Translations under genes and position numbers: made by a program | NCBI GenBank assembly: GCA_918797485.1 | Contig: CAKKNE010000003.1 | Coordinates: 4,526,001 to 4,590,000, forward strand | Length of the DNA stretch: 64,000 nucleotides | Reading direction: 5' to 3' | From: Pelagomonas calceolata | Taxonomy: Eukaryota | Notes under the pieces: generated by a model | What the model was told of the DNA's origin: nothing | The model's database searches: none | The model's input: the letters and a program-made list of their open reading frames with translations, nothing else | Shown here: piece after piece, positions 2,240-58,569 of the stretch | How positions within the stretch are numbered: position 1 is the stretch's first letter | Layout of the letters: the number at the start of each line of letters is the position of its first letter

Positions 2240-2674
2240 AATGGACGCTCGTGTCCAGGGGGAATAGAGAAACCCTGGTAGCGTAAGAGTATGTCGCAGC
2301 GTTATGTAGAGTAGCAGGGTCCCAGCACACCAGCCAAAGGCTGTGCCTACCTACGGTACCTCACGGTACCTACGGTACCTAACTACGAGAGTGTTTTATA
2401 GCAAATTGATACATCGTAGTGCAACGTAGAGAGAAACCTACTAGCCCTCCCTACCCTAGATATGTATCTCCCACTCTCTAAATTTGAGTCTATACATCGA
2501 GTGTCTATCGCACTACGGTGTAAACACAATTCAAGTTCAACTTGAAGTTTGCTATAAAACACTCTCCGAGGCTCGTACTACTAGTAGTAGTTCGGTTGGC
2601 CCAGCCTTTGGCTGGTGAGCTACGAGCCTGTAGGACCCTGCTACTTTACATAACGCTACGACATACTCTTGCTA
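2240..2674. mobile_element. Copia LTR mosaic: PPT plus LTR start (+), inverted LTR 3' part (~2285-2410, -), full LTR 2427-2674 (+)
   Basis: Direct sequence match to LTR 73-281 and to the PPT context at 9786-9808. Confidence 0.85.
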
Positions 2675-4315: not shown

Positions 4316-4448
4316 TTTGGTGTGTACTTGGTCTTTTCATACTAGTAGATGACTCCCTGCTCTTCCCCTCTCTTTTTCTTGGGATATTTCTTCCTTAATA
4401 GCGTCGTGCCGATGTTAAGGAGTTGTGCGTCCTTTGGCGAGAGAGATA

Positions 4449-4535
4449 TGAAGTAGAGCCCATTTTGCATCAAAACGGACGCTCACGGGAAAACCCGTTC
4501 GCTAACCGTTTGGATGCAAAATGAGCTCTACTTCA
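4449..4535. repeat. Short hairpin element with core CATCAAAACGG...
   Basis: Near-perfect inverted arms TGAAGTAGAGCCCATTTTGCATC / GATGCAAAATGAGCTCTACTTCA; core matches 52605-52709. Confidence 0.8.
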
Positions 4536-4639
4536 ATTATATTACGACCGAAATCCATGGTTCTGGGTGGCCGATTTTGGGGGTCTAATGATTTCTAGTA
4601 TATTTCATGACTAGGGGGGTATTTCGAATATATAGTTGA

Positions 4640-4705
4640 GTTAGACCCGCCACGTCATCAAAACGGTTCACTGCGTTCACCGTTTAGACGCGTGGCGAGT
4701 CTAAC
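4640..4705. repeat. Short hairpin element with related core
   Basis: Arms GTTAGACCCGCCACG / CGTGGCGAGTCTAAC around CATCAAAACGG...CCGTTT. Confidence 0.65.
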
Positions 4706-5084
4706 CACGTAATCATATTAGATTACGCTTATATTATAATTTTCACGACAGTTTCAATATATTTAAACCTTCGATAATTTTGCACGCACAAGATCTTATA
4801 ATCATTCCGCCAAGATTCCGATTAAACTTCAATAAGATCTTGGAGTTCATCAAGGGGATAGATTTGATGATGATGACACTTTGGCCATAAAATTCACCAC
4901 ATCCTGCATCAACTTCAAGAAACTGTTGGGTGGTAGAGCGTCCTCGAGGCCGTGGGCTTGGCCCCGCCGCCGATGGTTCGGGGGCGAGGTGTTGTTAACG
5001 GTCTTTTGGGAACTAACACCTTGGACTCATGCGGTAAAACCCGTAGCTAAGCGAAAACAGTCCCACGCCCTAGCGCGACCTCGC

Positions 5085-9422: not shown

Positions 9423-9511
9423 TTCAAATTATCTATAGTATGATAGTACTAGTACCTACGGTACTACCATGGTACCTACGGTACCTACGGTACCTACGGT
9501 ACCGTGACTAC

Positions 9512-10009
9512 TAGAGAGAGAAACCTACTAGCCCTTCCTACCCTAGATATGTATCTCCCACTCTCTAATATTTGAGTCTATACATCGAGTGTCAAAAGCA
9601 CTACGGACGGTCCATTTGAAGGAGTTTACTGACTTTCCGAAAAAGGACGAGAAGGATCCAACAACAGTATTTACGGATATTCATTTCGAGAAGAAGTCTG
9701 TTGCTTATGAAGCCTATCACTTGTCACATGGACTTTGCCTGTGAATAGACTGAGTTGATACATCCTCTAGTGGAAGCGCATCTAGTGGACGCTCGCGTCC
9801 AGGGGGAGTAGAGAGAGAAACCTACTAGCCCTTCCTACCCTAGATATGTATCTCCCACTCTCTAATATTTGAGTCTATACATCGAGTGTCAAAAGCACTA
9901 CGGTGTAACAACAGTTCACTATAAAACACTCTTGCAGTCAGGCCTATCAGCTCTAAGCTGGTTAGCTAGGACCCTGCTACTTACATAACGCTGCGACATA
10001 CTCTTGCTA
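9512..10009 (+). mobile_element. Internally deleted copia element (partial 5' LTR 9512-9606, internal 3' end, PPT 9801-9808, 3' LTR 9809-10009)
   Basis: 5-bp TSD ACTAC at 9507-9511 and 10010-10014; AGGGGGAG directly precedes the 201-bp LTR. Confidence 0.9.
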
Positions 10010-10061
10010 ACTACCGTAGGTACCTACGGTACCGTAGGTACCGTACTATAGTACTAGTAGT

Positions 10062-13996: not shown

Positions 13997-14287
13997 TAGC
14001 CTAAGTAGGCGCCGTAAAAACACCGGGGTGAACCTAAACTTGAAGTAAGTTCACTTCAGGCGCGTCTCTAGTGCGCGTGGTCCGGGGGCCCTGGGGTTGG
14101 CGCCCGTTGTGGCAACGGCCTCTTTTCCCACTTATAAATCTCCCAAATTTTATCTTAGCTTCACTATCCTAGTCTCATTTATCTTAGTTAAATACCCGGA
14201 TAGAATAGGCCTAGTGAATACGGTACCAGCTTGTACCGGTACTGCTAGCGGGGATCATCTTGGCTAGATCTTGGCTGCCCGCGCAAG

Positions 14288-21801: not shown

Positions 21802-21991
21802 ATGGCCAAAAAGTTACTTCATTCAATCCCCTGCTGGTTCCAGAGCTCCCGTAGGTCTAGAGGCGCGTATATTATGACTGACTCCCCATGTGGGGTGAGG
21901 CGGGTTTCTACGAGTGTGCGCCCTGCCTACCGTGACGCTAGGGAAAATATACTGCTGGGTCTAACTGCTGGGGTATTGTCTTGGCCTGTTG

Positions 21992-22598
21992 CTAGGTTGC
22001 CATTTACCCGACCGTGACTCGACTCATGTAGCGCATGCGCTACATGAGTAAACGGGCTATATGGGTAAATGGGCTATATAGGTATTTGGGTTATATGGGC
22101 GTTTGGGTTATAACCCAAATCCCAAATAACCCAAATACCCATATAGCCCAAACACCCATATAACCCAAATACATACCCATATAGCCCATTTACTCATGTA
22201 GCGCATGCGCTACATGAGTCTCGGAGGGGTTATTAACTCCAATCGCGGCCCGGGGTCAGTAACCCGGGTAATTACCCGTTAGTACGGGTTATATTAACCC
22301 TATTAACCCGGGATCTTATGGACCGTCCGGACGCCCGCCGCTTAACACGGGGGCGGACCCCAAATTTGAGATTCGAGTTCCTAGCCACTTTCCGGGGGCG
22401 ATTTTGGCTGTGGGGTCCCAAAGGGTCCCTTTGTACGCCCCGAGAGGCTGAGGCCCGCGCCAGTGGCCAGTGAGGCCCCCTCCCCTACCCCTCTATAAGA
22501 TCCTGAGGTAAATAATCCGTACTAACCGGTAATTACCCGGGTTATTAACCCCGGGCGGCGCCAGGGGTAAATAGCCCCTCAGGTAAATGCCAACCTAG
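21992..22598. mobile_element. hAT-like MITE (TIR CTAGGTTGCCATTTACC) carrying a nested foldback element
   Basis: TIRs; subterminal TAACCCGG repeats; right half matches 26950-27105; TSD degenerate. Confidence 0.8.
22022..22219. repeat. Foldback element with palindromic ends
   Basis: 28-bp perfect palindrome ACTCATGTAGCGCATGCGCTACATGAGT at both ends; inverted TGGG(C/T)TATA arrays inside; CTCG duplicated on both sides. Confidence 0.85.
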
Positions 22599-24855: not shown

Positions 24856-25476
24856 GATAATTAAAAAAGTTATTTTATGGTGCGGGTAATTTTAGTAAAA
24901 CGGGCTGAATCGGGAAAATACCGGCGTATGGGGCTGCTTTTGGCCCCAGGCACATTGCTGGGGGGTGCACGGGGCGGGGGACACCTGAGTGGTAATGGGC
25001 CGTGGCGGTGGGTCGGCCCGAGGGGGGGTGCGCCGCGCGCGCTGTTTCTAGTTTTAGGAGGAGCCTCTGAGTGCCATATTTTTTACTATTATACCTGTCA
25101 CGGTTATATACTAGTAATATCGAATTCAAGTTATAGTAGAACGCGGACGGCCCAGGTCACAAGCTCTTCGTGGCTGATGTACCCGCTGGCCGGGGTGATT
25201 CCGTCAAATTTGCACCCCGCGCTGCATGCAGCCCACGGACATCATAAGGAACAGTTGACCCAGCGGGACCTTCCCCCCTTTCCCCCGTCTTCCCTTCAAG
25301 TTTCATTTGCGGGTCCGGTTTTTTCGGAGTTTGCCAGATTATGCACTTCTGTGCCAGTATTGAACATACCGCAGTACTAATTTCTACGTCGATAGCGTAC
25401 TTTTTTTTTACATGTCGAGCAAGCGTACTTTTTTTAGTGGTACTCATTCGGAGTCATTCGGGGGAGTGACCTGGTA

Positions 25477-26644: not shown

Positions 26645-27105
26645 CTAGGTTGCCATTAACCGGTTAATAACCGGTAATTTGCCCATTATCACTCCTCGGA
26701 GGGGATCCGGGGTAAATAACCCGCTCAATAACCCGACGGGTTTTCGACTAAACCCGTTTAGTGAGATTAGCGAAAGACCCCCCCGGAAGAGCGGATTGAA
26801 GTGAACTTACTTTAGGTTCACCCCGGTGTTTTTACGGCGCCTACTTAGCGCCGGGCTTGATCCACTTGGATAAGCAGAAAGATACGGGATATAGGGAAAT
26901 ATCAGCTACGGGCCCAAGGCAAGTACCAAGTCATGTGGCCCGGCGCGGCCCAGGCCCGCGCCAGTGGCCCGTGAGGCCCCCTCCCCTACCCCTCTATAAG
27001 ATCCTGAGGTAAATAACCCGTACTAACCGGTAATTACCCGGGTTATTAACCCCGGGCCCGGGCGGCGCCAGGGGTAAATAACCCCTCAGGTAAATGGCAA
27101 CCTAG
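26645..27105. mobile_element. hAT-like MITE
   Basis: TIR CTAGGTTGCCATT / AATGGCAACCTAG; perfect 8-bp TSD CCTGTCTC at 26637-26644 and 27106-27113. Confidence 0.9.
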
Positions 27106-27131: not shown

Positions 27132-27319
27132 GTAGCAGGGTCCTGGCTCACCAGCCGAGGGCTGGGCCAACCTAGCTGCCAACCTAACTACGAGAGTGTT
27201 TTATAGCAAATTGTTGTTACACCGTAGTGTCAGAGACACTCGCTGTACTGTATAGACTCAAACTTAGAGAGTGGGAGATACATATCTAAGGTAGGAGGGC
27301 TAGTAGGTTTCTCTCTCTA
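27132..27319 (-). mobile_element. Copia LTR lacking its 3' end
   Basis: Reverse complement of the LTR, including the TAGAGAGAGAAACC start. Confidence 0.85.
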
Positions 27320-30491: not shown

Positions 30492-30641
30492 CGAGCCTGC
30501 TCGCGCTAGCCAGACACGGACGACTTAGTTTCCATGCATGACATTGTTTACTATAAGTACCTACGGTACCTACGGTACCTCGAAGCTTACCGTAGGTATC
30601 GTCCGCTAGGTCGTCTACAGGGGGTATAACTATATGGGGAG

Positions 30642-30710: not shown

Positions 30711-30979
30711 ACCCATAAAGTAAGTTCACTTTATTTATTCCAACTTGAACTTGACTCGGAGCCTGAGGGGGGGGGGGGGGGTGGTGTAAAAACAGCCAAA
30801 TTTTAGGCCTTCCTTAATCATTTGTTTGTTTGTTTGTTTGTTTGTTTGTTTATCATGATTTATTTATGGCTTTATTTATTTAAATCTGCATGGGGTCACG
30901 GTATTCCGCGAATCTTCATTCTCAGCGAATCCCGAATCTCGAATCCCAAAAATAAGAGAGTATGTAAGATCGTGACCGC

Positions 30980-35682: not shown

Positions 35683-36097
35683 TAATGTAAAAAGATTGCT
35701 GTCTTTATCTTTGGACCTCGGGAACCAACAGCTAGCCTGTAGAACCGGACCTGATCATTGCCTCGCACGTTGCACCTGCCGTCTGTCGGACTTCCTATAC
35801 ATACTCCCCACCTAGGCCCTCAGCCTATATAAGGCCGCATACCTACGTACCTGCTACTGCCAATACTGCGGTATGATATGGCACGTATGCTTGTATTTAC
35901 GTCTATGGAACTCCCGGGGTTCAACGTCCGAGTCAAGCTCTCTACTCACGAGCTACGCCGCATCCGCGACGAGATCCGAAGCCTACCGCCGTGCACACAC
36001 TACTAGACTGGCAGCGGGCCGCGTCGCCGTTTGGAAAATCGTTAAACACTCTCAGGCTTCGTCAGCCTGAGGCCCGGGCCCGGGAGGCGGAACCTTG

Positions 36098-36444: not shown

Positions 36445-37020
36445 ACTACGGTACCTACGGTACCTACGGTACCTACCTACGGTACGGTACCTGCGGTACC
36501 TAGCTCTACGGTACCATGGTGCCTATGGCAGCTGATGGCGTGCAATGGCTGGCCCTACGTCGCACGTCTTAATTTGAATTCTTGAACGCACTTGCAGTCC
36601 AGTTTTGGGTACACCTCCTCAAACAACTGCACAATCCGTGGCAATCCGTGGCTTGTCCGGCCGGCGCGCCATGACGCCCGACGCCGACGAGCCAGCGCCC
36701 GCTGCTCCTCCGTCCGCGTCGCGCGCCGCGTCCGCTCGAAATCTTACAAGTACCGTGCTCTTTACGCGCCGCGGCGCGGGCCTCCAAAAGGGAGTCGCCC
36801 AGCAGTGCGCCTCGCGGCCCAGGATTGGCGCGGAAGAAGGAGGTCTTCGTCGCATCTAAACCGTTGCCGCGCGCCTTAGCCACGCGCCGCAGCGACCTGT
36901 CTCAGCGGCACACCCGCGCAGGCGCTTCGGTGCGCGGCCGCGCCTCGAGTCATCATTTTGTTCGCGCGGGCCGGACGATGAGAGAATCGCGACCTCACGG
37001 TCACGGCCGAATTTGATAGC

Positions 37021-38506: not shown

Positions 38507-39599
38507 ATGCGCGGCGCGCTGGTTGCCGTCGCCGCCGGCGCGGCCGCGTGGGCGCCCGCGTTTCGTTACGACGCGCTGCCGCGACGACCCACCAGACGCG
38601 CTGCCGCGACGACCCACGGGGACCAGATAGTCGTGGCCCTGACGCGCGAGGCCGGCAAGAACGGCGGCCTCGCGCGCGCGCTCGCCGAGCATCACATAGA
38701 AACGGTCGAGGTGCCCTGCGTCTCCACCCAGAGGACGCCCCAGATGGACGCCCTTCTTGATAGCGCGCTGCTTTTTGCAGAAGACCCCTGGGACTGGGTC
38801 GTCGTGACGTCGCCCGAGGCCGCCAAGACGTTTGGCGCGGCGGTCGCGCGCGCGGGCCTCGGCGCGACGCGCGATGCGAAATGGAGGGCCTTCCGGCTCG
38901 CGGCCGTCGGCGGCGCGACGGCCGCGGCGCTGGACGCGTGTCAGGATTTGAGGCCGTGGCGCGGGAGTTCGTTCACGCCCGCGACGGCGACGGCCGCCGC
39001 ACTTGCGAAGGCGCTGCCCGACGACTCGGGCCGGCGCGTGCTCTTCCCCGCGTCGGCGCTCGCCGCGCCGACCTGTGTGGAAATCAAAATTTTACGGCGC
39101 GTTCGTGCTGAATCATCGCGTCGACCTCCACGCCATCGACGCGACACCTGCTCGATGGCGTGGCGATGTCGGTTCTTCACCGCTCGACGGAGCCAGCGCG
39201 GCCACGTCATCGCCGAGAAATGACTTAGTGAAGAATTGTCGGGTGCACCCGACACACTGGTTGATTTCCACACAGGCGCCGACGCTCGAGGAAGGGCTCA
39301 AGGAGAGAAACTTCGCCGTGACACGCGTCGACGCGTACACGACGGCGCCGGCGCCGTGGTCTCCTGAAGATGCCGCGGCGGCGGCCTCCGCGGATGTCGT
39401 CGCCGTCGGCTCGCCGTCCGCCGCGCGCGTCTGGGCCGCGCGCGCTTCCGTGAACGTCCGCGCCGCGTGCGTCGGCGCGACGTCGGCCGACGCGTGCGTC
39501 GAACTGGGCTTCGGGCGGGACCGCGTCTTCGCGCCGGCGAAGCCGGGCCTCGCGGGCTGGGCGGGCGCGGTGCGGGACGCCGTCGCGGCGCTCGCCTAG
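38507..39599 (+). CDS. hemD: Uroporphyrinogen-III synthase, plastid-targeted; intron 39065-39275
   Basis: VALTREAGKN, WVVVTSPEAA, LAAVGGATA, VLFPASALA|APTLEEGL, RVDAYTT, VGSPSA. Confidence 0.9.
39073..39275 (+). mobile_element. Introner element (best-preserved copy)
   Basis: Perfect 15-bp TIR CTGTGTGGAAATCAA; 8-bp TSD GCGCCGAC; removing one TSD plus the element restores the frame. Confidence 0.95.
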
Positions 39600-42905: not shown

Positions 42906-43523
42906 ATGGCGCTCGCCCAACGGCTGTGGAAGGCCATGAGCCGCCATTACCAAAAGAACGTCGCCGGGCGAGTATCCCTGCCTCCCCGTAGACGCCAAGC
43001 GCTCGCGGCACGCGCCGGCTCCGACGACGACGCGTTCGAGAGCCGGCTCCTCGCGCGCGCCTCGCCGCCTCGACGCGCGCCGCCGCAGGTCCCTCTCCGA
43101 GTTCGGGCTCAAGTACGACGACATAAGAATTGAAAGTGATGCGGACTACGCAAAGGCCCTCGACCGCCTGCAGCAGCGTGTGCAGATCAAATTTCACGCG
43201 CCTTCCGCGCCACTCGTCGAGAGAATCTCTACGTCGCACAACCGTCCGCGCCAGCAGCACGACCGCATCGCCGCTGTAGAAAGGAATTGTGAGAACTTAT
43301 TCGCGGATATACCGCACTCACCGGTTTACACGCAGGCCTGCCGCACGCGGAGCTCCAGCTACGCGCGCGGCGCATGAAGCGCGCCTTCGACGTGTCCTTC
43401 AAGCGCAAGGCGCTGCCGCCCGACCTGCGGGCGCTGCAGAAGCCTCTCGAGGGCTACGCGGGGCCCCTGATCGAGGAGGCGAAGGCCCGTCGGGTGGAGC
43501 GCGAGCTGCTCAACACCTTCTAA
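42906..43523 (+). CDS. QCR7: Cytochrome bc1 complex subunit 7 (14 kDa); introns 42968-43088 and 43166-43335
   Basis: Spliced product ...YQKNVAGSLSEFGLKYDDIRIESDADYAKALDRLPHAELQLRARRMKRAFDVSFKRKALP...; two GC-AG introns. Confidence 0.85.
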
Positions 43524-43537
43524 ACAACATACTAGTG

Positions 43538-44374
43538 TTAGTACTTCTCTTTCCAACTACACTCCCACCGGTGGACCGTGATGGAGGCGCCCGTCGCGCC
43601 GCCGGTCCCGTCGTTCGCCACGGGGTAAAGGATGGTCTTGGGGAGGCAGGCGCAGTCCCACGCGCGGCGGAAGTAGACTCGCGTGAGGAGCCCGGGGCCC
43701 GTCGTCTCTATTGTCCTCGCGGCGCTGGCTTCCGCCAGTACCTTGCCGAGGGTCGCGCCGAACCCGCTCGCGGCCACGAGCGCCGCCGCGCGCGTTTTGG
43801 CCACATCCTCCGCCGCGACCGCGGCGTCGCACGCTTCGACGAGCGCCGCCATCAGCGCGCAACCGGGCGCGCAGCCCATGACCGCGTTGCCGACCTCCAA
43901 GCCGCGGACGTTCGCCAGGCCGACGAACGCATTACATTTGCGAAGGAGCGGCTCGAAGCTCCGCACGAAGTCCACGTCCACGTCCGCGTAGACGCCGCCG
44001 TGCACGAACAGTATGTAGTAGCGCGCGACGTCGCTTTTGGCGGCCCAGTCGCGCGCTTTTGCGAACGCGCGCCGCGCGCCGCGGTTCCCCCCCAGGAGCG
44101 CCGCGACGGCCGCGCCGCGCCACAGCACGCGGGTCCAGCCCGGGTGTATCCGGCAAAAGGCGGCGCCGCGCTCGATCAACGAAGGCGGCACCGGGCGCGG
44201 CCCGAGCCAGATTTGATGAAGCACGCGCGGAATGCTCTCCGCCGTCGCCGGCGTCCGTCGGAAGGCCTCGTAGTCGCCCGCGAGGCGCGCGAGCCAGGCG
44301 TCTTCGTTGTCCCCCCAGAGGTTGCTCCTTGGGATTTGCGGTGCCTCCCAGGGGGGCCAGTCTCGAGCCTCCAT
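43538..44374 (-). CDS. GT32 (DxD sugar-binding) glycosyltransferase
   Basis: IPRVLHQIWLG; KSDVARYYILFVHGGVYADVD; TTGPGLLT. Confidence 0.85.
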   Translation of the reverse strand: MEARDWPPWEAPQIPRSNLWGDNEDAWLARLAGDYEAFRRTPATAESIPRVLHQIWLGPRPVPPSLIERGAAFCRIHPGWTRVLWRGAAVAALLGGNRGARRAFAKARDWAAKSDVARYYILFVHGGVYADVDVDFVRSFEPLLRKCNAFVGLANVRGLEVGNAVMGCAPGCALMAALVEACDAAVAAEDVAKTRAAALVAASGFGATLGKVLAEASAARTIETTGPGLLTRVYFRRAWDCACLPKTILYPVANDGTGGATGASITVHRWECSWKEKY

Positions 44375-44557
44375 GTGGCTGCCAGCGTACGAAACGCTAC
44401 GAGCGCGCCCTCTTGATCCACATTCTTAGCACTGCTACGTTGGATGTGGCAGGATGCAACCGTTGACCGGATAACTTGAGAGCCGTCCGCGTGCGTGATC
44501 GTGTATTCAAATGTCGTCGTGACACTCGTCGCGCTTATATGCCTGTATACAGTAGAG

Positions 44558-44935
44558 CAGGGAGCGACAATGGGAAGGGAGCGGGAATTCCCGGGAACTC
44601 TCGGGAATTCCCGGGTCCGATTTTTCACTCCCGGGGAGCGAGACCTGGGAAAACAGCGAAAAAACCCGCCAGTTACAGTGGACGGGCAGACGCGTTTTGT
44701 ACTATGGGCAGGATCTGGCCAAGCAGATGCCCCAGGCGCACGTCCTACGGTCCTAAGGTACCCTAGTACGCGCCAGTCCCATTGGAAATGCTTATCTGGG
44801 TTCGGGGGGGGCTGCCCCGGCCCGGCTCCCCGCGGATCTCCCATACTCCCGGGAATTCCCACCGGGAGCGGGAATTCCCGGGAGTTCCCGGAACTCCCGG
44901 AAATTCCCGACCCCTAGATCTCGCTCCCCGGGAAT
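44558..44935. mobile_element. MITE-like remnant with GGGAATTCCC subterminal repeats
   Basis: Inverted CCGGGGAGCGAGA / TCTCGCTCCCCGG; many CGGGAA(T/C)TCCC units; no TSD found. Confidence 0.55.
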
Positions 44936-45214
44936 TGCTCAACTATAGTCGCGCTCGTCACGCGGTTGGCCTTCGCGCTGTAGCTGTCCGTCTCGAGGAG
45001 ACCGATCGGCGGCGGAATTGTGATCTTGCCCTCAGCCATGGTCTCTCGAGGGAGTAGTTGACCGGTCACCGACGCTCTCGAGGCCTGTTTCACTGGCCTA
45101 GACAGGCTCTTGTAAATTTGTAATTAGTAATTAATAGAGAGCTCCAGAGAAGGGATCAGGATGGGTTATTATAAACCGAACCGAAGTTTGTCGAAACACG
45201 GTCCCAACTCTAGT

Positions 45215-46387
45215 TCAGCTATGTCCCTTGGGCACCGGCGGCAGGGGTGCAAGTGGGGGGGTTGCAGGGGGCACCGGCGGCGGGGGTGCAGGAGGGGGTG
45301 CTGGAGGGGGCACCGGCCAGTGCATTTTTCGTCCGACGAGCTCCTCGAGATCCGCATTGAATGGAGCGTAGAACTCGCGCAGCAGGCGCTCTGTGACTGG
45401 CAGCATGTGCTCGTGAAGCGTGGTCTTAGAGCCTGCATGCTCCGTCGGAATCTGTACGTGGTAGATTGTGTTCGCCCTGTTGGGCGTGGCCCATGCCAGC
45501 ATCTCCTTCAGAGTGTCAGCGCCATGCACAAAGAAATCTTCTGCACGTACGAGCAACACGTTGGAAGCGCGATGGTAGCGGTATATTCGCCGAAGGTGCC
45601 AGATGTATAAGCCCATCCTCACTTGTGCCGCCCTCTTGTCGCCGTAGATGGAGCAGTGGAAGTCGCTCAGATCACAGCTGCATCCCAGCCACGAGCCTTG
45701 GCCAAATGAGCTGCCTACAAGTGCCGAACAGCACTCGCGAAAATGTGCCGACCGCTCGTGGTCGATGGCTGGATCGCCTGAAGGCTGCGCGCTGTCGGGG
45801 CAGCCTCTGATGATTGCAACCTCGATCTCAACGAGGCGATGAAAGCCATTGGCATTGCGTCCGAGATGCGTGACGTCGCCACCTTCGTAGAAGGAGGAGT
45901 AGGCTCGACTCGTCGGGTCGCGCAGGAAGATCACCAATCGTGGGCTTCCCAACGCCTCGCAGAGGCGCAATGGCGCGTGCGGACTGTAGTAGTACGCGGG
46001 TGTCTTCTCGGCGAGGGCCACTGTGGATTGCTGACACCGCGTCTTGCTACTCAGTCGCTGGGCATACGCCTCCACATCATGAGCGGTGATAGAGATGTTG
46101 GAGAACTCGTTGCGGTCAAAAAAGTGCAGCTCGCCCCACGCCATGCACGCCACCTGAGGTTGAGCAGCATTCAGATCCTGGATCACGCTGGTGGTGCCAC
46201 CTTTCTGCACTCCGATGACAACGAAGTCGGGCAGACGGACGTGTAGGTGGTGCGCGATTGTTGTGCGCGAGCAGCCGACGTATAGCTGAGATGTCTGGTT
46301 CGATGGCGCAAGGAACGTGCCGCCGGGAGAGGCGCCGAGGCGCAGAGGAAGCAGCAGAGGCAACAAGATGGCCATCGCGCCACGCAT
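45215..46387 (-). CDS. Heparan-sulfate-type sulfotransferase with Pro-rich tail
   Basis: LPDFVVIGVQKGGTTS; ELHFFD; EKTPAY; LRDPTSRAYS; LREFYAPFN. Confidence 0.85.
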   Translation of the reverse strand: MRGAMAILLPLLLPLRLGASPGGTFLAPSNQTSQLYVGCSRTTIAHHLHVRLPDFVVIGVQKGGTTSVIQDLNAAQPQVACMAWGELHFFDRNEFSNISITAHDVEAYAQRLSSKTRCQQSTVALAEKTPAYYYSPHAPLRLCEALGSPRLVIFLRDPTSRAYSSFYEGGDVTHLGRNANGFHRLVEIEVAIIRGCPDSAQPSGDPAIDHERSAHFRECCSALVGSSFGQGSWLGCSCDLSDFHCSIYGDKRAAQVRMGLYIWHLRRIYRYHRASNVLLVRAEDFFVHGADTLKEMLAWATPNRANTIYHVQIPTEHAGSKTTLHEHMLPVTERLLREFYAPFNADLEELVGRKMHWPVPPPAPPPAPPPPVPPATPPLAPLPPVPKGHS

Positions 46388-46704
46388 GCCGACGGCCGCG
46401 GAGGCGTCCTTGAGCGTCAGCTCGCCGCTGGCGCTGGCGCTGCCGCAAGACGGAGAAAAGCGGCAAATGAGGTCGCTGGCGCTGCAGCGCAAGACGGGCC
46501 GCGGCGTTTGAGGTCGCAAAATTCTCGGCGGACCTAAAGTGACATATATGGCAAGACCTGCAGGTAGGCTACCCAAGTACCACGGTACCGTGGTACCGTA
46601 CCCAAGGCCAGCGCGTACGTATACGTTTTTTTGCGTACACGCTGCTATTTTGGTTTGAATACGACGTTTGCGCGTGTTATCGCGCGGCAACAAGAATCGC
46701 CAGC

Positions 46705-47617
46705 ATGACGTCGCTGGCCGAGTCGTTGGACAGCGTCGGCGAGCGCATCGTCGACTGGGCGCTCGTCGGGTCGCCCGTGACGGACGCGCCCGTCCGGGGT
46801 TGGCCGCTGGCCAGGTTCTCGACGGCGCTCGCCATCGCCGTGGCTTACCTCGCCTTCGTCGTGTTAGGCTCACTCTTCGCGCGCGCGACGCCGGGCGAGG
46901 GCGTCAAGTCGCGCGCGGCGCGGAAATCAACAACCTCAAGCGTCAACTTCCACGCCGTCGATGCGAGATTCTCTTTGCAATTGCGTCTGCTCGATGCAGG
47001 GCTGACGATCGATTGCTGCGCGCAGGTTGTACGGCGTCGCGTTCCTGTACAACATCTGCCAGGTCATGCTCTGCTCCTACATGTGCCTCGAAGCGGCCAT
47101 CGTGGCCCGGCGGCACGACTACAACTTGGTGTGCAATTCCTTCAAGAGCGAGAACCCGCCCGTGGCGAACGTCCTCTGGCTCTTCTACGTGAGCAAGATC
47201 CTGGATTTCGTGGACACGTTCTTCATCGTCATCGGCAAAAAATGGAAGCAGCTGAGCTTCCTGCACGTGTATCACCATACCACCATCTTCCTCTTTTACT
47301 GGTTGAATCTGCACGTGAACTACGACGGCGACATCTATTTGACGGTGGTCTTAAACGGGTTGATCCACGCGATCATGTACACCTACTACTTCGTGAGCAT
47401 GCACACGCGTGACATCTGGTGGAAGAAGTACCTCACGCTCGCGCAGCTCTTCCAGTTCACGTGCATGAACGGCCAGGCCCTGGTCCTCTACGCGACGGGC
47501 TGCTCCGACGCGCCGCCGCGCGTCACGGGGTTGTACTTCGTCTACATCGTCTCGCTCTTCGTGCTGTTCCTCCAGTTCTTCGTCGCGAGCTACGTACCCA
47601 AGGCGAAGGCGGCATGA
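46705..47617 (+). CDS. ELO-family fatty acid elongase; intron 46908-47025
   Basis: FYVSKILDFVDT; LSFLHVYHH; HAIMYTYY; splicing gives GEGVK-LYGVAFLYN. Confidence 0.92.
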
Positions 47618-48200
47618 ATATCCACGGCGGGACGGTGCGCTATCTAGTTTTAACCACGTTAGGAAGAGGTGGTAGTTTTCTTAACTGCGATGCGCGGAGA
47701 CCTGGGCGGCAGTTAATGCCGTGGGCTATCGGAGCTTCCAGTCAAGCTCGGGTGCAAAATAAACGCGCCCAACTTGAAGTTCCTTAGGAGTCGACAACAA
47801 AGTGGTAATTAACACTCAGAGCTGTCCGTGCTAGAGATACCCCACCCTAGTAGGCCCGGGTACTTTTCACTGCAGCCTGAGGGGGTCGGTATACCACCGC
47901 ACCCCACTTATTTAGGATGATTCAGTTGCTCCCCGCCTTGAGGGCGGATCTAGAGACAATTCATGTGGAATTTGAGGAGGTGACCATCCTGGGCGGACTC
48001 TCAGTTACTTGAATACCCGGATAAAATAGGTCTAGTGAATACGGTACCGTATCAAGACGGCGCGCGAGTACGCCCGGATCATGGGTAGGGTTACGGGAGG
48101 GTTACGGGACAAATCAACACGACCACGTCTTACTCTTGATTCAGACGGCTAGGGGAGAGGATAGACGGCGTCTTCGATGGAGTGGGCGCCTACGCGAATC

Positions 48201-50346
48201 TCACGCCCTGAAAGCACTTCTTGCACTGGAAGTAGGAGGCCTTGCCGCCATAGGCGAATTCGAAGGCTGGCTGGGGAGACGCGCGCGGAGGCGAGCGACG
48301 TCGGCCCGTAGTGCCGCGTTCTCCGCGGTCAACAGAGCGACCCGTGCGGAGAGCAGCGCGTCCTCCGCGGCGGAGAGCGGCGCGTCCTCCGCTGCGGAGA
48401 GCGGCGCGTCCTCCGCAGCGGAGAGCGACGCGTCCTCCGCGGGGGATGGGAGCGCGGCATCAGCCACGGGGTTCGACGCGTCCCAGTCCCAGTCCCAGCC
48501 CAGGAGGTCGTGGAGGAGGCGCTCGTGCCAGAGCAAGTCCTCGGCCATCTGCGGCTCGAAGCCCAGCAGAGCCATGGTCGCGTTCGGATCGTTCAGGACG
48601 TGGCGCGCCTCTTTCTTGTGCTCCTCGACATTCTTGTGGCCCGCGCCTTCGTTCTTGAACTCGGCGTACGGGTCCGCGTGGATCCAGCGCGGCTCCATGC
48701 CCAAGAACGAGGCGAGCGCGGGGCCGCACGTCGTCTCGCCGAGGCAGCGCTCGAAGCGCAGCACGAAGACGTGGTCCGCGCCCCAGAGGCGCTGGAAGAG
48801 CTCGACCGCGTAGACGTAGTGGACGAGCTTGAAGTACGATGCCTGGGTCTCGGACACCTGCAGCTTCCGCAGAGCGAACGGGGACGCGACGAACGAGCAG
48901 CCGCGCTTGTCCCACAGGCCCGGATCCGACCGCGCGTCGGCGGGGCAGCCCGCCTGTCTGAGATCCTTCATCAGCTTGGACCAGTTCTGGCGGAGGTAGC
49001 TTGCGCGGCCGTCCGCGTCGACGCGCGCCGCGAAGTTCCACCTGGGTGGCAATCAAAGTATTCCAAGGTCACCGCGACATGGGTCCAACGAATCCGTCGT
49101 CTGAACGAGGTGACATGCCTAGGCGAACTCCATGAGGACGTCAACAGCTGTCCGCCCGTGAAAGAACGAGCGACATCGACCGGGGGGAAAGGGCCGAGAT
49201 ATGGAGCTTTTTTAATGTTTCAGGCCGGTCTCACTCGGTGGTTGATTTCCACGCGGAGTCCCGCGGGTGCCGCGTCGAGAGGACGATTTTCGCCGCGGGG
49301 GCCTTGTAGTGGATGCTCAGCATGACCTCGACGCGCGTGTGGTAGTCGGGCGTCTTGTCGACGAACCAGCGCGGCGTCCTGTCCGCGGGGCCGTCGTAGT
49401 ACCGCAGGCCCGCGCCGTCGACGCAGCGGTCCGCTGTGGGCGCGTCGCACGCGCACAGCCCGGGGCGGTCGTACCCCGCGAGCGACTTGGAGAAGCGCCG
49501 CAGGTAGTCGCCGTACTGCACCGAGCCCTTGCCGTTGCCCTTGAAGTACAGGCCCTCGCCCGGATGGCCGTCGTTTCCCTCGGCGCCGACGACCAGGTGC
49601 CCCGGCACGCTCTTCGCGAGGCCCGCCCGCAACGACGTCGTGCCCGAGCGGCTCCAGCCCGCGATGAACACGTTCGGCGACGCGAGCCGCACGAGCGCGC
49701 CGCCGACCTGGGTGGAAATCAAAAGTTCAAGGCCACTGCAACTTGGGTCAAACGAACCCGTTTCGACCGTGGATTGTCAATCATAATAAAGAGGATGTCC
49801 GCAGCTATCTGCTCGTGAAGAAACGAGCCATCGACCGAGAAACAGCCGAGATATGAATACTTTCGATTCGGGTGAACACCAAACTCAGTGGTTGATTTCC
49901 ACACAGCCGCCGACGCGGACGCACGCGCGCTGGTCGTCGAGTTTCAGCGACGCGACGCGCCTCGCCGTGGCGTTGACCATCCACGGCTCCACCTCGACGG
50001 GCACGAGGCCTCGCGCGCGGGGCTCCGCCGCCGCGTACGCGTCGCCGCCGCCGTGGAAGGCCTCGACCGCGCACGACTCGAGACGCGGCGCGTCCGAGGC
50101 GACGCTCAGGCGCTTGCCGCCCTCGCCGCGGAGTCTGCGGCTCCAGGACGCGACGAGCCGCCTCGAGCGCCGCGCGCGGCACGGCGGCCGGCGGAAGACG
50201 GCGGCGACGAGCAGCAAAGCGGCCGCGCCGCGCGCGGACCGACGCATTGCGCGCCACCGCCGACGCGGCGACCGCGGCGAGCATGGGCTCGTTTCATCCG
50301 CCTCGACGCTGTCCTCGGCGAGGACCACCTGCAGCTTTTCCGCCAT
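48201..50346 (-). CDS. Membrane sulfotransferase-like protein; introns 49708-49914 and 49042-49264
   Basis: PNVFIAGWSRSGTTSL; VDKTPDY; AKIVLSTRHP; VFVLRFE; both introner removals restore the frame; SAAEDAPL repeats near the C terminus. Confidence 0.8.
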
Positions 50347-50857
50347 CCTTCGCTCTATCTAGCGTTTCGCTGCGCGGTGTTGCAGCAGCGCTGACAGCTG
50401 ATCTATAGAGACCAGCACCCGCGCTCCCAGCGCGTAAATGGCAGCACGCGGCGCGCCTGATCTCTGCCTCTCGCGCCAAAGCGGCAGTCAAAACGCGTGC
50501 GGCAAGGACGCGAGGGACGCTAGGTAGTAGGCGTCGGCGAGCACTACGCAGTAAATACAAGCCTCCTTACAACAGAAAAAACCGGAGCAACCGGGGAACC
50601 CCGCGTGACACGACAAGAGCTGGGCCATCTAGCGGCGACGCAGCCCGCGGCCCTGGTCGTGTATCTCTCCGAGCGCCGCCGCCCTCGCGCCGTCGCCGAG
50701 GTGACGTACTCCGAGCACGCGCTCCCATCAAACGCGGGCGTCCTGTTCGTCGACAGGGAACGCGACATCGCCCTAGATGCGCACGGCCTGTGGTCCTACA
50801 TCTAGCCCAGGGCCCGCCGAGACCTCGAGGGCGCGGGGGCAAGGGTGGTCAAGCCCG

Positions 50858-50918
50858 GATAGCTCCCCCGTCACCCCTCTAGGCGCGCGCCCCCGCAACC
50901 CGAATTGACTATAGCTAT
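50858..50918 (+). mobile_element. 3' end of the putative non-LTR element
   Basis: Identical to 24775-24836. Confidence 0.75.
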
Positions 50919-50981
50919 CTATAATACGGTACCGTACCGTAGGTATAGAAGCCTAGTACCGTAGGTACGCAGTAACCAAAA

Positions 50982-52187
50982 ATGTCGCCTTGCGGGCAGC
51001 CCTCCGCGCCTGCAACAATGCGTCTAGCGCTGGCAGTCGTCCTGGCCTGCTGCAGCGCGGTCCATCGCGACTACCAGGGTGCCCCCGTCGTGATCGGCCT
51101 TAGGCTAAACGCCACAGAGGAGCTAAACATTACAGCGAAGCTGCTGACGTGCCGGGCGGGGGCCGGGACGCCCAACTTCGCGGCGAGTCGTGCGGCCGTC
51201 GAGCGGCTGCATGGCGAGATGTGGCCCGTGCGGCTGCGCGGGATGTTCAACGTCGGGTCGCACTACGTGTATGAATTAATGAAGCACCGAGTGCCTGTCA
51301 CGATGTTCAACCCGGGAGGTTGGTATGGACCGGAAGGCTGCTTCCGCTGGAAGCATATGCCGCTTAACGTGGACACCGCACGCAAGCGAGGCGCGTGCCG
51401 CACCGAGGCGGCGGTGCCCGTTAATGAATTGCATCTCGTCGTTGCGCGCCACCCGCTGTCGTGGCTGCTTTCGATGCGCGGAGCGTCGTATTCATTTCGT
51501 TGTGTGTGTCAATCAAATTCATCTATCACAGGATGCTGGGAGGCGGGCTGCTCGAAGTCGGAGATCGACCACAGGAACTGCATGGCGGTGCCCAAGCCGC
51601 GAAATGGTCCAGGGGCAAATTCGACGCTGAGCGTCGCGGCGATGCTGCGCGGCCCCTGCGAGCTCTTCAGCACGGACGGGCACTTCGGGCCCCTGCGCGT
51701 GGCTTATGATGGCGCGTTCGAGCTGTGGAATAGATTTTACGGGGACTTTGTGGACCTCGCCGCCGCGTCGCCGAACGTGCTCGTGCTGCGGTACGAGGAC
51801 ATCCTGCGCAACGAAACCGGCGCCATCCGCGAGATCGCCGCGCGCGCGCGCTGTGCCCTCGACGCGAAGTTCGCCCAGACCTCGGGCAAGAGCCTCGTCC
51901 CGCGGAAGGTCGGGCCGCAGGTGGCGCACGGGGACCTGCCCTCGAAGGCGGTGCAGCTGAATCAGGCCTGGCGCGCCTCTTGGTCGCAAGCCGAGCTTCG
52001 CACGGCGTGCCGCCTCTTCGACGCGCGAGTGATGGCACGGCTGCGATACACGTGCGATGACGCAAACGTATCCGCCGACTCGGGCCGCCCGCCGCACGCG
52101 CGGTGTGACGAGACGGTGCAAAAGCTCGCCGCGCTCGCGCTCGAGGCGGGGGCCGAGCCGGCGGCGGTGCGAGCCGTGACGGGGTAA
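50982..52187 (+). CDS. Secreted sulfotransferase-like protein
   Basis: Signal peptide; LRGMFNVGSHYV; WKH; VVARHPLSWLLS; LRYEDIL. Confidence 0.65.
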   Translation: MSPCGQPSAPATMRLALAVVLACCSAVHRDYQGAPVVIGLRLNATEELNITAKLLTCRAGAGTPNFAASRAAVERLHGEMWPVRLRGMFNVGSHYVYELMKHRVPVTMFNPGGWYGPEGCFRWKHMPLNVDTARKRGACRTEAAVPVNELHLVVARHPLSWLLSMRGASYSFRCVCQSNSSITGCWEAGCSKSEIDHRNCMAVPKPRNGPGANSTLSVAAMLRGPCELFSTDGHFGPLRVAYDGAFELWNRFYGDFVDLAAASPNVLVLRYEDILRNETGAIREIAARARCALDAKFAQTSGKSLVPRKVGPQVAHGDLPSKAVQLNQAWRASWSQAELRTACRLFDARVMARLRYTCDDANVSADSGRPPHARCDETVQKLAALALEAGAEPAAVRAVTG

Positions 52188-52604
52188 GCCAGAGGCGTAG
52201 TGGTCCGTACACATGCGTGCGTGGGCCGGAAGCTAGCGGTACAGAGCAGCATCCCGACGCAAAAACCATGAGTTTTTCCGGACTCCGAGACCGCCACGGC
52301 CGCGGCCAAGCAGATTCCCTTCCCCCCGCACCTCTGTATTCGACGTCGGAGCTCCGGTCGGGGCCGGGCCGCCGTTGCTGCCCCTGGCCGAGGGCGCGGC
52401 GCCGGCGGCCGGGCTGGCGCCCGGGCGCGTCCCTCCGAGTAGGGCGCCGCTACCCCGCTGCGGCCCCCGATGCGCCACCGGCGCTCGTTTCGCGCATACC
52501 TAGTATGTGCGATCACCGAGTCCGGCCACTCACCGGAGCAGATCCAGGCGCTATGCCGCTGGACTACACTAGGGCCCACCCCACGTCGGGTATATCTTCC
52601 ACCC

Positions 52605-52709
52605 AGTAGTATATGACTTGTAGCCGTTTTTACATCAACGCGGAAAGTGAACGGGTTTTCCCGTGAACGTCCGTTTTGATGTAAAAACGGCTACAAGTCA
52701 TATACTACT
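52605..52709. repeat. Hairpin element with perfect 34-bp arms
   Basis: AGTAGTATATGACTTGTAGCCGTTTTTACATCAA and its exact reverse complement. Confidence 0.9.
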
Positions 52710-53428
52710 CCCGGGCCGAGTTCTTCGTGGTTAAGATTGCTTCTCTCTCTCTGGATGGCGATGTTCTTTCGTTGCCAGTGGCGCCCATGAACGCATGCAG
52801 CCGCAGCCGGCGCGTCGCTAAACCTACTAAACGGGTTTTTGACGACTTTGGAGCTCTCCCTCTCATCGGCATCGACCTCCGTACAGACCCCCCGACCTCG
52901 GGCGGGCTACCGACCCCTCGGAGGCTCCATGCGAAAAAGCACGTAATTTCGGATCGATTAAGACTTGGTCAGTACCTGGCTTCCCCCCCCGTGTACCGTT
53001 AACGGTACGGGGCACTGTTGACCAGTTCCGCCATCATGATGGGTCCGGCCCGGGGCGGCGTGGGCCCATACTAACCTGAGTAGAAAATGCATCATCAGTG
53101 AGAAGTGACCGCACCCAGGCCCCATACTATAGTATTATTCAAGTTGACGGACCGTCGCAAGTCCCCTCCGAGTCAAACATGGGACACACTATTTCGTTAG
53201 ACAACTACACTACGCTGCCGGGGAAGTCCGGAATTACACACGCTATTCCCCCCTGCATCGCACTGGGGACCGTGGAGGCCCGGCCGCCGTAGGTTTGATT
53301 GAAAAGTAGCAATCACGTCATGCTCGGATCAGACCCGGAGAGAAAAACGAAAGCAGTCGCGGACACCGCTCCCCGCCCAGACGACGTCGCGAGCGAAAAA
53401 AGGCCGCGCAGCTGCGCCAAGTCGCTGA

Positions 53429-54205
53429 TTAAACCTCGTCGGGCTGCTGCTTCTTCTTCCGCTTCGCCTTGGCGCACTTGGCGACGCGGGTCTCGAGCGC
53501 GACGACGCGCTCCTCGAGGCGCGCGGCGCGCGCCTCGGCGGCCGCGCAGCGCGCCGCCTCGCGCGCCGCGGCGTCGCGCGCCGCGGCGCGCGCGCGGTCG
53601 GCGTCGGCCGCGCGCGCCTCGGCGGCGCGCTGCGCGGCGCGCGCACCGTCGGCGTCGGCCACGGCGCGCGCGGCGCGCGCGACCGCCGCGTCGGCGTCCG
53701 CGCGCGCGGTTTCCGCCGCCCGCTTTACGTCCTCGAGCTCGCGCGGCGCGGCGCCCGAAGAAGCCCGCGCGGCCTCGGCGGCCCGGGCCGCGTCCCGCAC
53801 CTGGCGCTCGAGCGCGCGGCGCGCGTCCGCGAACTCGTCGGCGAGCATCTGGCGGTCGACGCTGAGGCGGTGCAGCCGCCCCTCCAGCTCGGCGACGCTG
53901 TCGGCGTACGCGGCCTCGGCCCTCGCGTCCTTCCGCGCGTTCGCCCGGCCGGCGCTGTGGCCCGCCGCCGCCGCCGCGACGAGCGCGAGGGATCTGAGCG
54001 CGGTGACCAACCTGACGAGCCTGCCGACCGCCTCGCCCAGATTTATCCCCGGCGTCGCCTCGCGTTCGCAGAGCGCGCCCACGCCGTCGAGGTCGCCGAA
54101 GAACGCGGCGTTCGCGTCGCGCGGCCTGCCGCCGCCGCGGGGGACCAGAGGCAGCGGTTTTGGTGCTGCCTCCGCCAGGAGGGCCAGGAGGGCGAGGCGT
54201 CTCAT
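53429..54205 (-). CDS. Signal-peptide, Ala-rich coiled-coil protein
   Basis: MRRLALLALLA..VPRGG; heptad-like Ala/Arg/Glu region. Confidence 0.55.
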   Translation of the reverse strand: MRRLALLALLAEAAPKPLPLVPRGGGRPRDANAAFFGDLDGVGALCEREATPGINLGEAVGRLVRLVTALRSLALVAAAAAGHSAGRANARKDARAEAAYADSVAELEGRLHRLSVDRQMLADEFADARRALERQVRDAARAAEAARASSGAAPRELEDVKRAAETARADADAAVARAARAVADADGARAAQRAAEARAADADRARAAARDAAAREAARCAAAEARAARLEERVVALETRVAKCAKAKRKKKQQPDEV

Positions 54206-54864
54206 GCGGGGAGTCCTCTTGGTTCTTCTTTAGTTCTTAGTTCTTCAGCGCTGCCGGCTTGCGTGAAAGCTCTCACTTCCCTATTCCCTATTAATTTTAT
54301 CCCTAGTCCCCCGATGCTAGTGTGTGTCGACACGCTAGGTTTCAAACGGGGGCGTCAGGTGCCTTCTGAGAGCTTGTGCTGCAGTGCTGCTGTTTCAGAG
54401 GAGCAGCGGCTCTACACGTTCCAAGCCCGTTTTCCAACTGCTAACATCTAGGGGGACACCTAGGCCCGGGGGAGGCGCAAACCCTATAATTGAATGAAAT
54501 TGAATTGACTGAGCGGGCTCGCGCGCTAAACATGGGTCGCGTCTTCGACAACTGTCAGGCCTTCATGCTTTTAGTTTCTTGACGTCTCTTCTCTTTTTAA
54601 GCGCCGGCTGGGTATCCTAGCCGCGCAGGGAGAATGCCTCTAGAGGCTTGGTGTATGTCCTTTCCTTTAGGATATTCCTTCCTTAATTATTTATTTATGT
54701 ATTTTTGGTCAGGTACGTCGAGCGTTCACACTTGCGTTCACGCAGGGCGGCAAACGTTCGTAAAGTCGAAAGAAACTGATTTCGCACCAAGGCGGCGCAG
54801 GCCGTTAGCATTTTGGTGAATGAGATCGCGCAGGCTATGGTGCGCACCACAGGGTGGTTCGTAG

Positions 54865-56688: not shown

Positions 56689-58569
56689 ATGAGCGGCCGC
56701 CTCAGCCCGGCGAAGATGCTGGGCGCCTGGCTCCACGCGAACGGCAGCGACGGCGAACTGAGCCTGCACGACGACGCGGAGCCCGCGAGCGTCGAGGAGG
56801 AGAACGCGAGCCTCAAGCGGCGCGTCGCCGCCCTGGAGGCCACGCTGCGGCGCGTGCGCGGCGAGCGGGCCGACCTCGAACGCGTGCGACGGGTCATGAA
56901 GCGCAACTCGAGACTGCGGCGCAAGCTCGGCCTCGCGCTCGTCGCGTCCTACGTCCTCTACTACTGCTGCTGGAACCTGAGCTTCCTGGCGGGCTACAAC
57001 AAGCTGCGGGGGCGGCCGCGCGACTGCGCCGTGACGCGCTACGGCGGACTCATCCTGGAGGGCGGCGGCGTGAAGGGCGTCGCGTACGGCGGCGCGGCGG
57101 CGGCCTTGGAAGCTTATGGTTTATTGGATCGGCGGCACGTGACCCACTTCGCGGGCACGTCGGCCGGCGCGATGATGGGCGCGCTCCTCGCGGCGCGGAC
57201 GCCCGCCGAGGACATCGCGCGCTATCTCCTGGATTTCCCGTTCGAGCGGCTCATGGATGGCGGCCACGCGCTCGCGAACGCGGGGCGCCTGCAGCGGAGG
57301 CTAGGCTGGTTCCGGGGCGACGAGGTCGAGCGGGCGATGCGCGAATTACTCGACAAGGCGGGCGTCGGCGGCAACGCGACGCTCGGCGAGCTGGAGAAGG
57401 CCCGGAAAACGACGCTGCGGCTGTCCGTGACGGACCTGACGAGGGGTCGCCACGCGTGGCTCGACGCGACGAACATGAACAACGTGTCCGTCGCGCGCGC
57501 CGGCGCGCGAATCACTTTCGCCGTGCCTCTCGCGGGACGCGCGGCGGCGTGTCGTTCGCCGCTCGAGTCAGCCCGCGCGGCCGGGTGTGCACCCGACCCA
57601 CCGGCTGATTTTCGCGCAGGCGCGCGCCGTGCGGGCCTCGTCGGCCGTGCCCTTCGTCTACCCGCCGGTGCAGCTCGGGAAGCGGCTCTTCGTGGACGGC
57701 GGCCTCGTGCGGAACCTGGCGTGGGACGCGTTCGGCCACTGGGGCGTCGCGCGGAAGAGCAACCGGAAGCGGCGGTGGGTCCCGCGGCGGCGGCGCGCGG
57801 TCCTCGCGCTGTCGATCCGGGGGCCCGACCGCGCGTGGGCCGAAGATTTTTCCCTCCGGGGGGGCGACGGCGAGGAGGAAGACGACGAGCCCGCGCCGCC
57901 GCGGCGGGCGTTCTTTCCCTTCTTCGCCGGTCCCGACGAGGAGCAGGAGACCCTGAGGCGGCGCGCCCTCAACCGGCGGGGCTTCGCCGGGCTCCGGGCG
58001 GGGCGAAAGGCAAACTTCACGGCGCCTTCGTGCCGAGTCATCGACCTCCGCGCCATCGACGCGGCGTCTGCTCGACAGCGTGGCGGCGAGGGGCTCTCGC
58101 CGCTCGACTTAGCCGGCGGAGCCGCGTCGTCGCCGAGAAACGAGTTTGCGAGATAATTATCGGGTGCGTCCGACTCACCGGTCGATTTGCGCGCAGGCTC
58201 TGGGCCTTTGGCACGAAGCTGCTGGAACTCGTCGCGTTCGGCGCGGACTCGCCGAACGCGCTCCCGCCGGACGGCGCCAATCTGGACGTGGTGAAGATCG
58301 ATACATTAGATGTCCAGGCGGCGGAGTTCGACCTGGGGTCGCGCGAACGGGCGCACCTCGTCGCGTCCGGCTACCTGTCCGTCGCGCGGCACCTCGAGGC
58401 CTGCGGCCACGGGCGGTCGCCCGCGCCGCCGCCGTGGCTGGTCGGGTTACTGCGGAACGCATCGCTGGACTTATACGAGCTCATGGCCAAGGACGCAGCT
58501 TTGTCGCTGCTGAAGCGCGGCATCCGGCCGCAGGAGGCGGTCAAGCCAACGGTTTATCCGGAGCTCTGA
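56689..58569 (+). CDS. Patatin-like phospholipase; introns 57493-57619 and 57991-58196
   Basis: EGGGVKG; AGTSAG; AVRASSAVP; FVDGGL; both splices restore the frame. Confidence 0.85.
   Translation: MSGRLSPAKMLGAWLHANGSDGELSLHDDAEPASVEEENASLKRRVAALEATLRRVRGERADLERVRRVMKRNSRLRRKLGLALVASYVLYYCCWNLSFLAGYNKLRGRPRDCAVTRYGGLILEGGGVKGVAYGGAAAALEAYGLLDRRHVTHFAGTSAGAMMGALLAARTPAEDIARYLLDFPFERLMDGGHALANAGRLQRRLGWFRGDEVERAMRELLDKAGVGGNATLGELEKARKTTLRLSVTDLTRGRHAWLDATNMNNVSVARAGARITFAVPLAGRAAACRSPLESARAAGCAPDPPADFRAGARRAGLVGRALRLPAGAAREAALRGRRPRAEPGVGRVRPLGRRAEEQPEAAVGPAAAARGPRAVDPGARPRVGRRFFPPGGRRRGGRRRARAAAAGVLSLLRRSRRGAGDPEAARPQPAGLRRAPGGAKGKLHGAFVPSHRPPRHRRGVCSTAWRRGALAARLSRRSRVVAEKRVCEIIIGCVRLTGRFARRLWAFGTKLLELVAFGADSPNALPPDGANLDVVKIDTLDVQAAEFDLGSRERAHLVASGYLSVARHLEACGHGRSPAPPPWLVGLLRNASLDLYELMAKDAALSLLKRGIRPQEAVKPTVYPEL

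Follow-up and report, generated by a model that had tools for sequence, protein, structure and literature searches.

The non-coding DNA of Pelagomonas calceolata carries a recurrent small insertion, here called a scar, in which a dinucleotide XY has become XY-C-rc(XY)-G-XY (rc, reverse complement), a gain of six nucleotides that is found at any dinucleotide and also within earlier scars. With a probability of roughly three in four, judged from the form of the scars, we take them to be footprints left by the excision of a cut-and-paste DNA transposon, which would duplicate any two bases and likely has 5'-C...G-3' ends. The window, by which we mean the whole stretch of 64,000 nucleotides that was analysed (contig CAKKNE010000003.1, positions 4,526,001 to 4,590,000), encodes an elongase 81% identical to a protein of Aureococcus anophagefferens, with other pelagophytes next among the named matches, and the region is present in marine metagenomes. 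Genes for glycosyl- and methyltransferases abound in its left half; along 1100-36000 and 43500-52200 we noted glycosyltransferase, methyltransferase, esterase and sulfotransferase genes with repeat-rich spacers between them.

The unit scar and its distribution

Among the 16 spacer pairs of the general form XY-a-rc(XY)-b-XY, C/G is the only one that is enriched: at non-GC dinucleotides the window contains 67 C/G scars, as against null means of 7.7-16.6 and 2-18 for each of the other 15 pairs, and the enrichment spans all 12 non-GC dinucleotides. Related DNA was collected in one metagenome scan with the motif of the LTR described below (126 loci, 579 kb including the window) and holds 764 C/G contexts compared with 62-188 for the other spacer pairs; in its non-redundant part, 473 kb sampled around one LTR family, 848 scar events were counted. 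Target preference is weak, the 12 non-GC dinucleotides being used at 0.76-1.29 of background. A version with three instead of two duplicated bases was found in 25 contexts (4-16 for other spacer pairs), and this form accounts for a few per cent.

Empty paralogues and alleles show that the scars are insertions. After rows in GTAC arrays had been dropped, 41 of the 48 six-nucleotide insertion rows in an empty-site comparison fit the rule, and among the 184 distinct indel blocks in 27 allele alignments a scar was gained in ten, in one case relative to the window itself. The process has therefore acted within the species, and scars are still polymorphic between alleles; the window has an empty allele at approximately 24981-24995, where the orthologue in L068 has a scar on AT. 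Scars are restricted to non-coding DNA: their density reaches 2.81 per kb outside long ORFs (background 0.45-0.49), and within long ORFs it stays at background (0.25 per kb versus 0.20-0.23). They also occur in clusters, such as the three scars that the parser found at 30742-30767, two overlapping and one adjacent, or the four at 36051-36084 when GC-only dinucleotides are included. A form at 58920-58936 resembling that of 2530-2549 (see below) was treated as chance, as it lies within an ORF whose reverse frame, judged by eye, reads as a Ser/Asp/Glu run. Distances between scar pairs over all loci have a bump at 120-140 nt (130, compared with about 90-97 in neighbouring bins), which could stem from LTR structure or chromatin.

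The host LTR and its two nested sites

The scars which started this study lie in a copy of a long terminal repeat at 2427-2674 (forward strand), about 202 nt long when clean, that aligns with ten other copies or fragments in the window. In other copies a primer-binding site follows, similar to that of copia half-tRNA priming, or a purine tract comes first. Two clear solo copies, L005 and L022, have 5-bp duplications; the label LTR used in the original prediction therefore holds, and the host can be read as a Ty1/copia-type LTR. Usual LTR termini are TG...CA; those of this family are TA...TA, for example in the window copies at 72-281 and 9808-10010 and in further copies. Neither a reverse transcriptase nor an integrase ORF was seen among the scanned locus ORFs with Pfam, and the LTR motif was absent from the viral contigs searched. 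Over part of the LTR, contig depth summed in X1 exceeds the single-copy depth several hundredfold.

Both nested strings that had been predicted in this copy are present in the sequence as read directly, at 2530-2549 (on TT, +18 nt) and at 2576-2589 (on TA, +12 nt), and a recursive parser reduces the former in three steps and the latter in two. Collapsing the three events was expected to restore the sequence of an LTR copy near 27205, and indeed the collapsed string equals the reverse strand at 27204-27214, the empty comparator of the first site. Among 84 LTR copies, counted without deduplicating loci, the 18-nt insert is present in the window copy alone and the exact empty allele in three; an exact-anchor search found L040 as an empty site opposite the insert. 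The second site is likewise nested in the window copy only, one of 68 copies covering 2576-2589. X1, X4 and X8 each have contigs that run through both sites and show 0 differences, which rules out an assembly error, and 300 block-wise dinucleotide shuffles gave on average 9.6 events (maximum 18) and 0.007 nested ones (maximum 1), compared with 69 and 3 in the window. Between and beside the two sites the parser found a three-base version, CTC-C-GAG-G-CTC, at 2564-2574 (+8 nt), and, just beyond the LTR, a single scar on AC at 2681-2688. A 10-nt insertion at 2621-2632 falls outside the scar rule: it duplicates TA and has C...G ends, but its six inner bases do not mirror the flank.

Nesting and its origin

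More than one event was found in 84 of 771 clusters, the control spacer pairs reaching at most 9. In the comparison with random insertion that had been proposed along with the prediction, 88 direct nests stand against 10.4±2.1 under uniform insertion. Thirty-five of these lie at the duplicated dinucleotide (steps 1 and 7), 21 at the central complement (step 4) and 32 at the four other steps. Nesting arises stepwise, as a pair of orthologous alleles one level apart shows: L063:7192 has depth 2, and L069 has depth 1, the difference being at step 5. Alleles of different depth thus exist elsewhere; at 2530-2589 no allele of other depth was seen in the X1, X4 and X8 contigs, and none of the X6 pieces listed spans the sites.

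How far the scar itself is re-targeted, as the original prediction had it, depends on what is taken as expectation. Most nesting reflects insertions crowding into short hot spots, and it is possible, if doubtful, that nesting is a mere by-product of them, with no preference for scars at all. Neighbour density is 7.4 pairs per step for distances of 2-10 nt and declines to 2.9 for those of 101-200 nt, steps 2, 3, 5 and 6 remain near expectation (32 seen, 26 expected; 21 of 150 simulations reach 32), and LTR copies whose events are common by descent were only partly removed, all of which speaks for such a by-product. Yet a model in which events scatter within 10 nt of their observed places yields 59.9±6.6 nests, with 0 of 150 runs reaching 88, and the excess sits at steps 1 and 7 (35 versus 22.9 expected) and at step 4 (21 versus 10.8), each number being reached in one of 150 simulations; adding a weak C/G flank preference lifts the expectation for step 4 only to about 13. 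We therefore retain an extra, modest preference, about 1.5- to 2-fold, for the dinucleotide that the scar duplicates or for its central complement. Later events do fall inside scars, as the nests of mixed dinucleotides, the depth alleles and the tandem rate attest, so that this part of the claim stands, mostly as a matter of local hot spots. Replication slippage, which had been named as the explanation to beat, is very improbable as the source of the nested strings and fails as a general account. It may contribute to some tandem cases, since TAC and TAG triplet repeats occur within 2576-2589 (where a single event with a triplet slip is another reading) and steps 1 and 7 yield 6-nt tandems; however, many nests combine different dinucleotides and are thereby beyond its reach, the allele pair differing at step 5 is not a duplication, reverse complements cannot arise in this way, and tandem scars (58 of 798, 7.3%) are 12-fold more frequent than control 6-nt slips (16 of 2623, 0.6%). 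For 2530-2549 in particular, two events could suffice instead of three: the string has exactly the form X-C-rc(X)-G-TT, X being the first 8-nt scar, as if re-insertion had occurred at the scar's last TT and one hairpin had then been opened at a distance of 8 nt from the tip, with joining via the same 2-nt complement. Mirror 20-mers of this form occur three times, compared with 0.4-0.7 in simulations, but long arms are nearly absent outside scar clusters (one 7-nt case), long palindromes with a C tip gave no clear excess, and nests at step 4, like tandem nests, show enrichment in their own right; we regard the two-event history as possible but less likely for this site, and long hairpin openings as a general route are unsupported. 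The notion of a countable record of successive events survives in that single sites are stacked, the count being approximate where a string has more than one parse.

Proposed mechanism and comparison with known footprints

The middle of the scar follows rc(XY), which points to hairpins formed on the flanks. The flanking bases are unconstrained (C at -1 and G at +1, each in 30% of events), so the C and G of the scar cannot derive from the target; as no C-N-N-G target is seen, they would most simply come from the element ends. In the pathway that we propose, the transposase would nick each non-transferred strand one base within the element, and the freed 3'-OH would attack the opposite strand at the element border, giving a hairpin-capped flank with the element's C as its tip. 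A host nuclease would then open each hairpin two bases beyond the tip, and the two resulting 5-nt overhangs would pair via their 2-nt complement, with fill-in and ligation accounting for the gain of six nucleotides. The hairpin-capped donor ends are intermediates suggested by scar geometry alone.

Flank hairpins are used by hAT, Transib, RAG and MULE transposases (available passages of PMC5499845), and in the resulting footprints the middle follows the reverse complement of the flank (passages of PMC5873905 and PMC5499845); in Ac/Ds footprints the midpoint of the palindrome is the complement of a flank base (PMC5873905, same passages). The scars resemble those of Ac/Ds, a hAT element, in having inverted flank bases around a single tip base, a short opening and joining by microhomology from the target duplication (excerpts of PMC5873905 and PMC5499845), and they differ in the 2-bp instead of 8-bp duplication, in a fixed C/G tip that is independent of the flank, and in the dominance of one product. 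A hAT geometry proper was rejected, because it would require a C-N-N-G target, which neither the flank frequencies above nor the empty alleles contain. It should be noted that known flank-hairpin enzymes tip with the complement of a flank base, as in Ac/Ds, and not with an element base, which counts against our preferred explanation. In their mode of formation the scars would resemble hAT/RAG hairpin footprints.

The candidate enzyme family is the CMCT clade (CACTA/EnSpm, Plavaka, Transib-like). As delimited in the accessible sections of PMC12730594, the clade comprises EnSpm/CACTA, Mirage, Plavaka, ESTA and Transib/RAGL, makes 2-5-bp duplications and mostly has 5'-CA...TG-3' ends, PlavakaB duplicating 2 or 3 bp; hairpinning of the flank by Transib/RAG is described there and in excerpts of PMC9435367, which also report a CMCT-clade element active in another pelagophyte and 5-bp duplications by a pelagophyte RAGL. 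The likeness consists in the 2-bp duplication (41 of 48 rows) and the rare 3-bp form, both read from scars alone and not from a filled site; of the 5'-CA...TG-3' termini, only the first base, C/G, can be deduced here, again from scars. Fourteen Arabidopsis Pack-CACTA empty-site clones, compared by eye (PMC6379663), are heterogeneous, and none has the full scar form, unlike the single dominant product seen here.

Tc1/mariner elements leave footprints of TA plus 2-3 element bases plus TA. They share with the scars a 2-bp duplication and the retention of bases from the element's termini where it was excised, but they are TA-specific and are cut without a hairpin (passages of PMC5499845), so no rc(XY) middle would arise for every dinucleotide. 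As all 12 non-GC dinucleotides are used and the middle follows rc(XY), mariner geometry was rejected for the scars; it is a better fit to the TA-based arrays treated below. A published account of this scar or of nested footprints was not found in the literature searched. In two pelagophyte genome papers, a term search of the text, figures aside, met no mention of footprints in the accessible supplements of PMC9481584 or the main text of 10.1101/2024.10.30.620910, and the available parts of PMC3193017 and PMC8195511 contain no footprint sequences.

Search for the putative element and its enzyme

A multi-copy element with C...G ends and 2-bp duplication was not found among the window's inverted repeats, the exact-anchor long insertions, the allele breakpoints or the repeat boundaries listed, nor at loose ends in wild contigs over 46400-54800. 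There was no Pfam match to a DDE transposase in 435 ORFs (52 of the 88 window ORFs of at least 200 aa and 383 of 389 non-redundant locus ORFs); C(2)C / H(3-4)H transposase motifs gave nine loose matches. The annotation table of Pelagomonas calceolata has at least one Tc1-like transposase among the entries listed, PF02992 not being among them. The MITE at 22021-22220 was rejected as source element: although flanked by TC, it ends in G...C, and it is the only copy. The sample comprises just 473 kb near a single LTR family, in which a low-copy element would be expected to escape notice.

This outcome can also be taken to mean that no resident element exists. Scars would then stem from nuclease breaks in whose repair one C is added per filled end and the partner overhang is copied, again yielding six extra nucleotides; the cutter could be a domesticated RAG/Transib-like enzyme or one of Spo11/topoisomerase type. 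A Spo11/topoisomerase-type cutter leaves 2-nt 5' overhangs. Besides the lack of an element or transposase in the DNA and ORFs searched, such an origin would suit the very high scar density, given that transposases are few among the reference annotation entries listed, and the low-GC regions without transposon accumulation reported in the available part of PMC9481584. It nevertheless requires that almost every event receive one C and no more at each end, which an element terminus explains directly; a low-copy element is easily missed in 473 kb, and the 3-bp variant suits the stagger of a transposase. We consider an element-free origin improbable and keep to excision of a transposon as the preferred reading.

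TA-based arrays and other repeats

A second, TA-based family of scar-like sequences forms GTAC-rich arrays at 2348-2381, 2697-2720, 9452-9503, 10012-10045, 30557-30580 and 36446-36514 of the window and, in related loci, at L081:89, L029:554 and L076:754-1030. These arrays contain up to 22 units of TA plus short C...G spacers, mostly abut copia LTR ends and vary between alleles; contigs across the GGTACC array at 2697-2720 show 6-19 gaps in wild samples. Four hundred of 634 spacers are C...G and another 189 are CC/GG, 150 of 202 nine-nucleotide units have a second within 40 nt, and one unit of the nine-nucleotide type is a single insertion at TA in an LTR. By their sequence, the arrays resemble piles of footprints from elements that target TA, with new TA targets made by every scar; if true, such a TA-specific element would grow arrays unaided.

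Several other repeats were noted. A hAT-like MITE at 26645-27105 has CTAGG ends and shows a duplication of 8 bp, and a second, degenerate copy at 21991-22598 contains the 200-nt MITE at 22021-22220. Elements resembling introners, about 200 nt long and inverted at their ends, are found at 39072-39276, 58012-58198, 60296-60442, 49040-49203 and 49706-49906, an 8-bp duplication being seen with the one at 39073-39275. Insertions of 11-12 nt (27166-27186; L063(+):19877; about 14265-14284) consist of a 9-bp duplication plus 2-3 bases and may be what an element that duplicates 9 bp leaves behind. At 4449-4535 and 52605-52709 lie two related hairpin elements, 87-105 nt in length, whose inverted arms are long. 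L001 is without 4440-4926, and three wild samples contain a weakly supported joint that skips 47870-53014 (29-nt side).

Biological significance

Excision footprints are usually heterogeneous and seldom readable genome-wide; here one product dominates, and a scar above background stands at about every 430 bases of non-coding DNA, still segregating in wild alleles. Such scars would let past transposition be counted site by site, show which DNA is accessible and supply population markers for a picoeukaryote lineage that is abundant. Their geometry predicts the position of the nick for a 2-bp-duplicating transposase, of which no such description was found in the literature searched. On a bolder reading, which at present we think rather unlikely, a new cutting chemistry (a flank hairpin tipped with an element base, a 2-bp stagger and one dominant product) would favour its own scar, possibly through a domesticated enzyme without a lasting element, and, together with TA arrays whose target would double in every round, much of the non-coding DNA would be the product of recursive rewriting. 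If this were true, Pelagomonas calceolata would possess a natural molecular recorder, legible across ocean populations.
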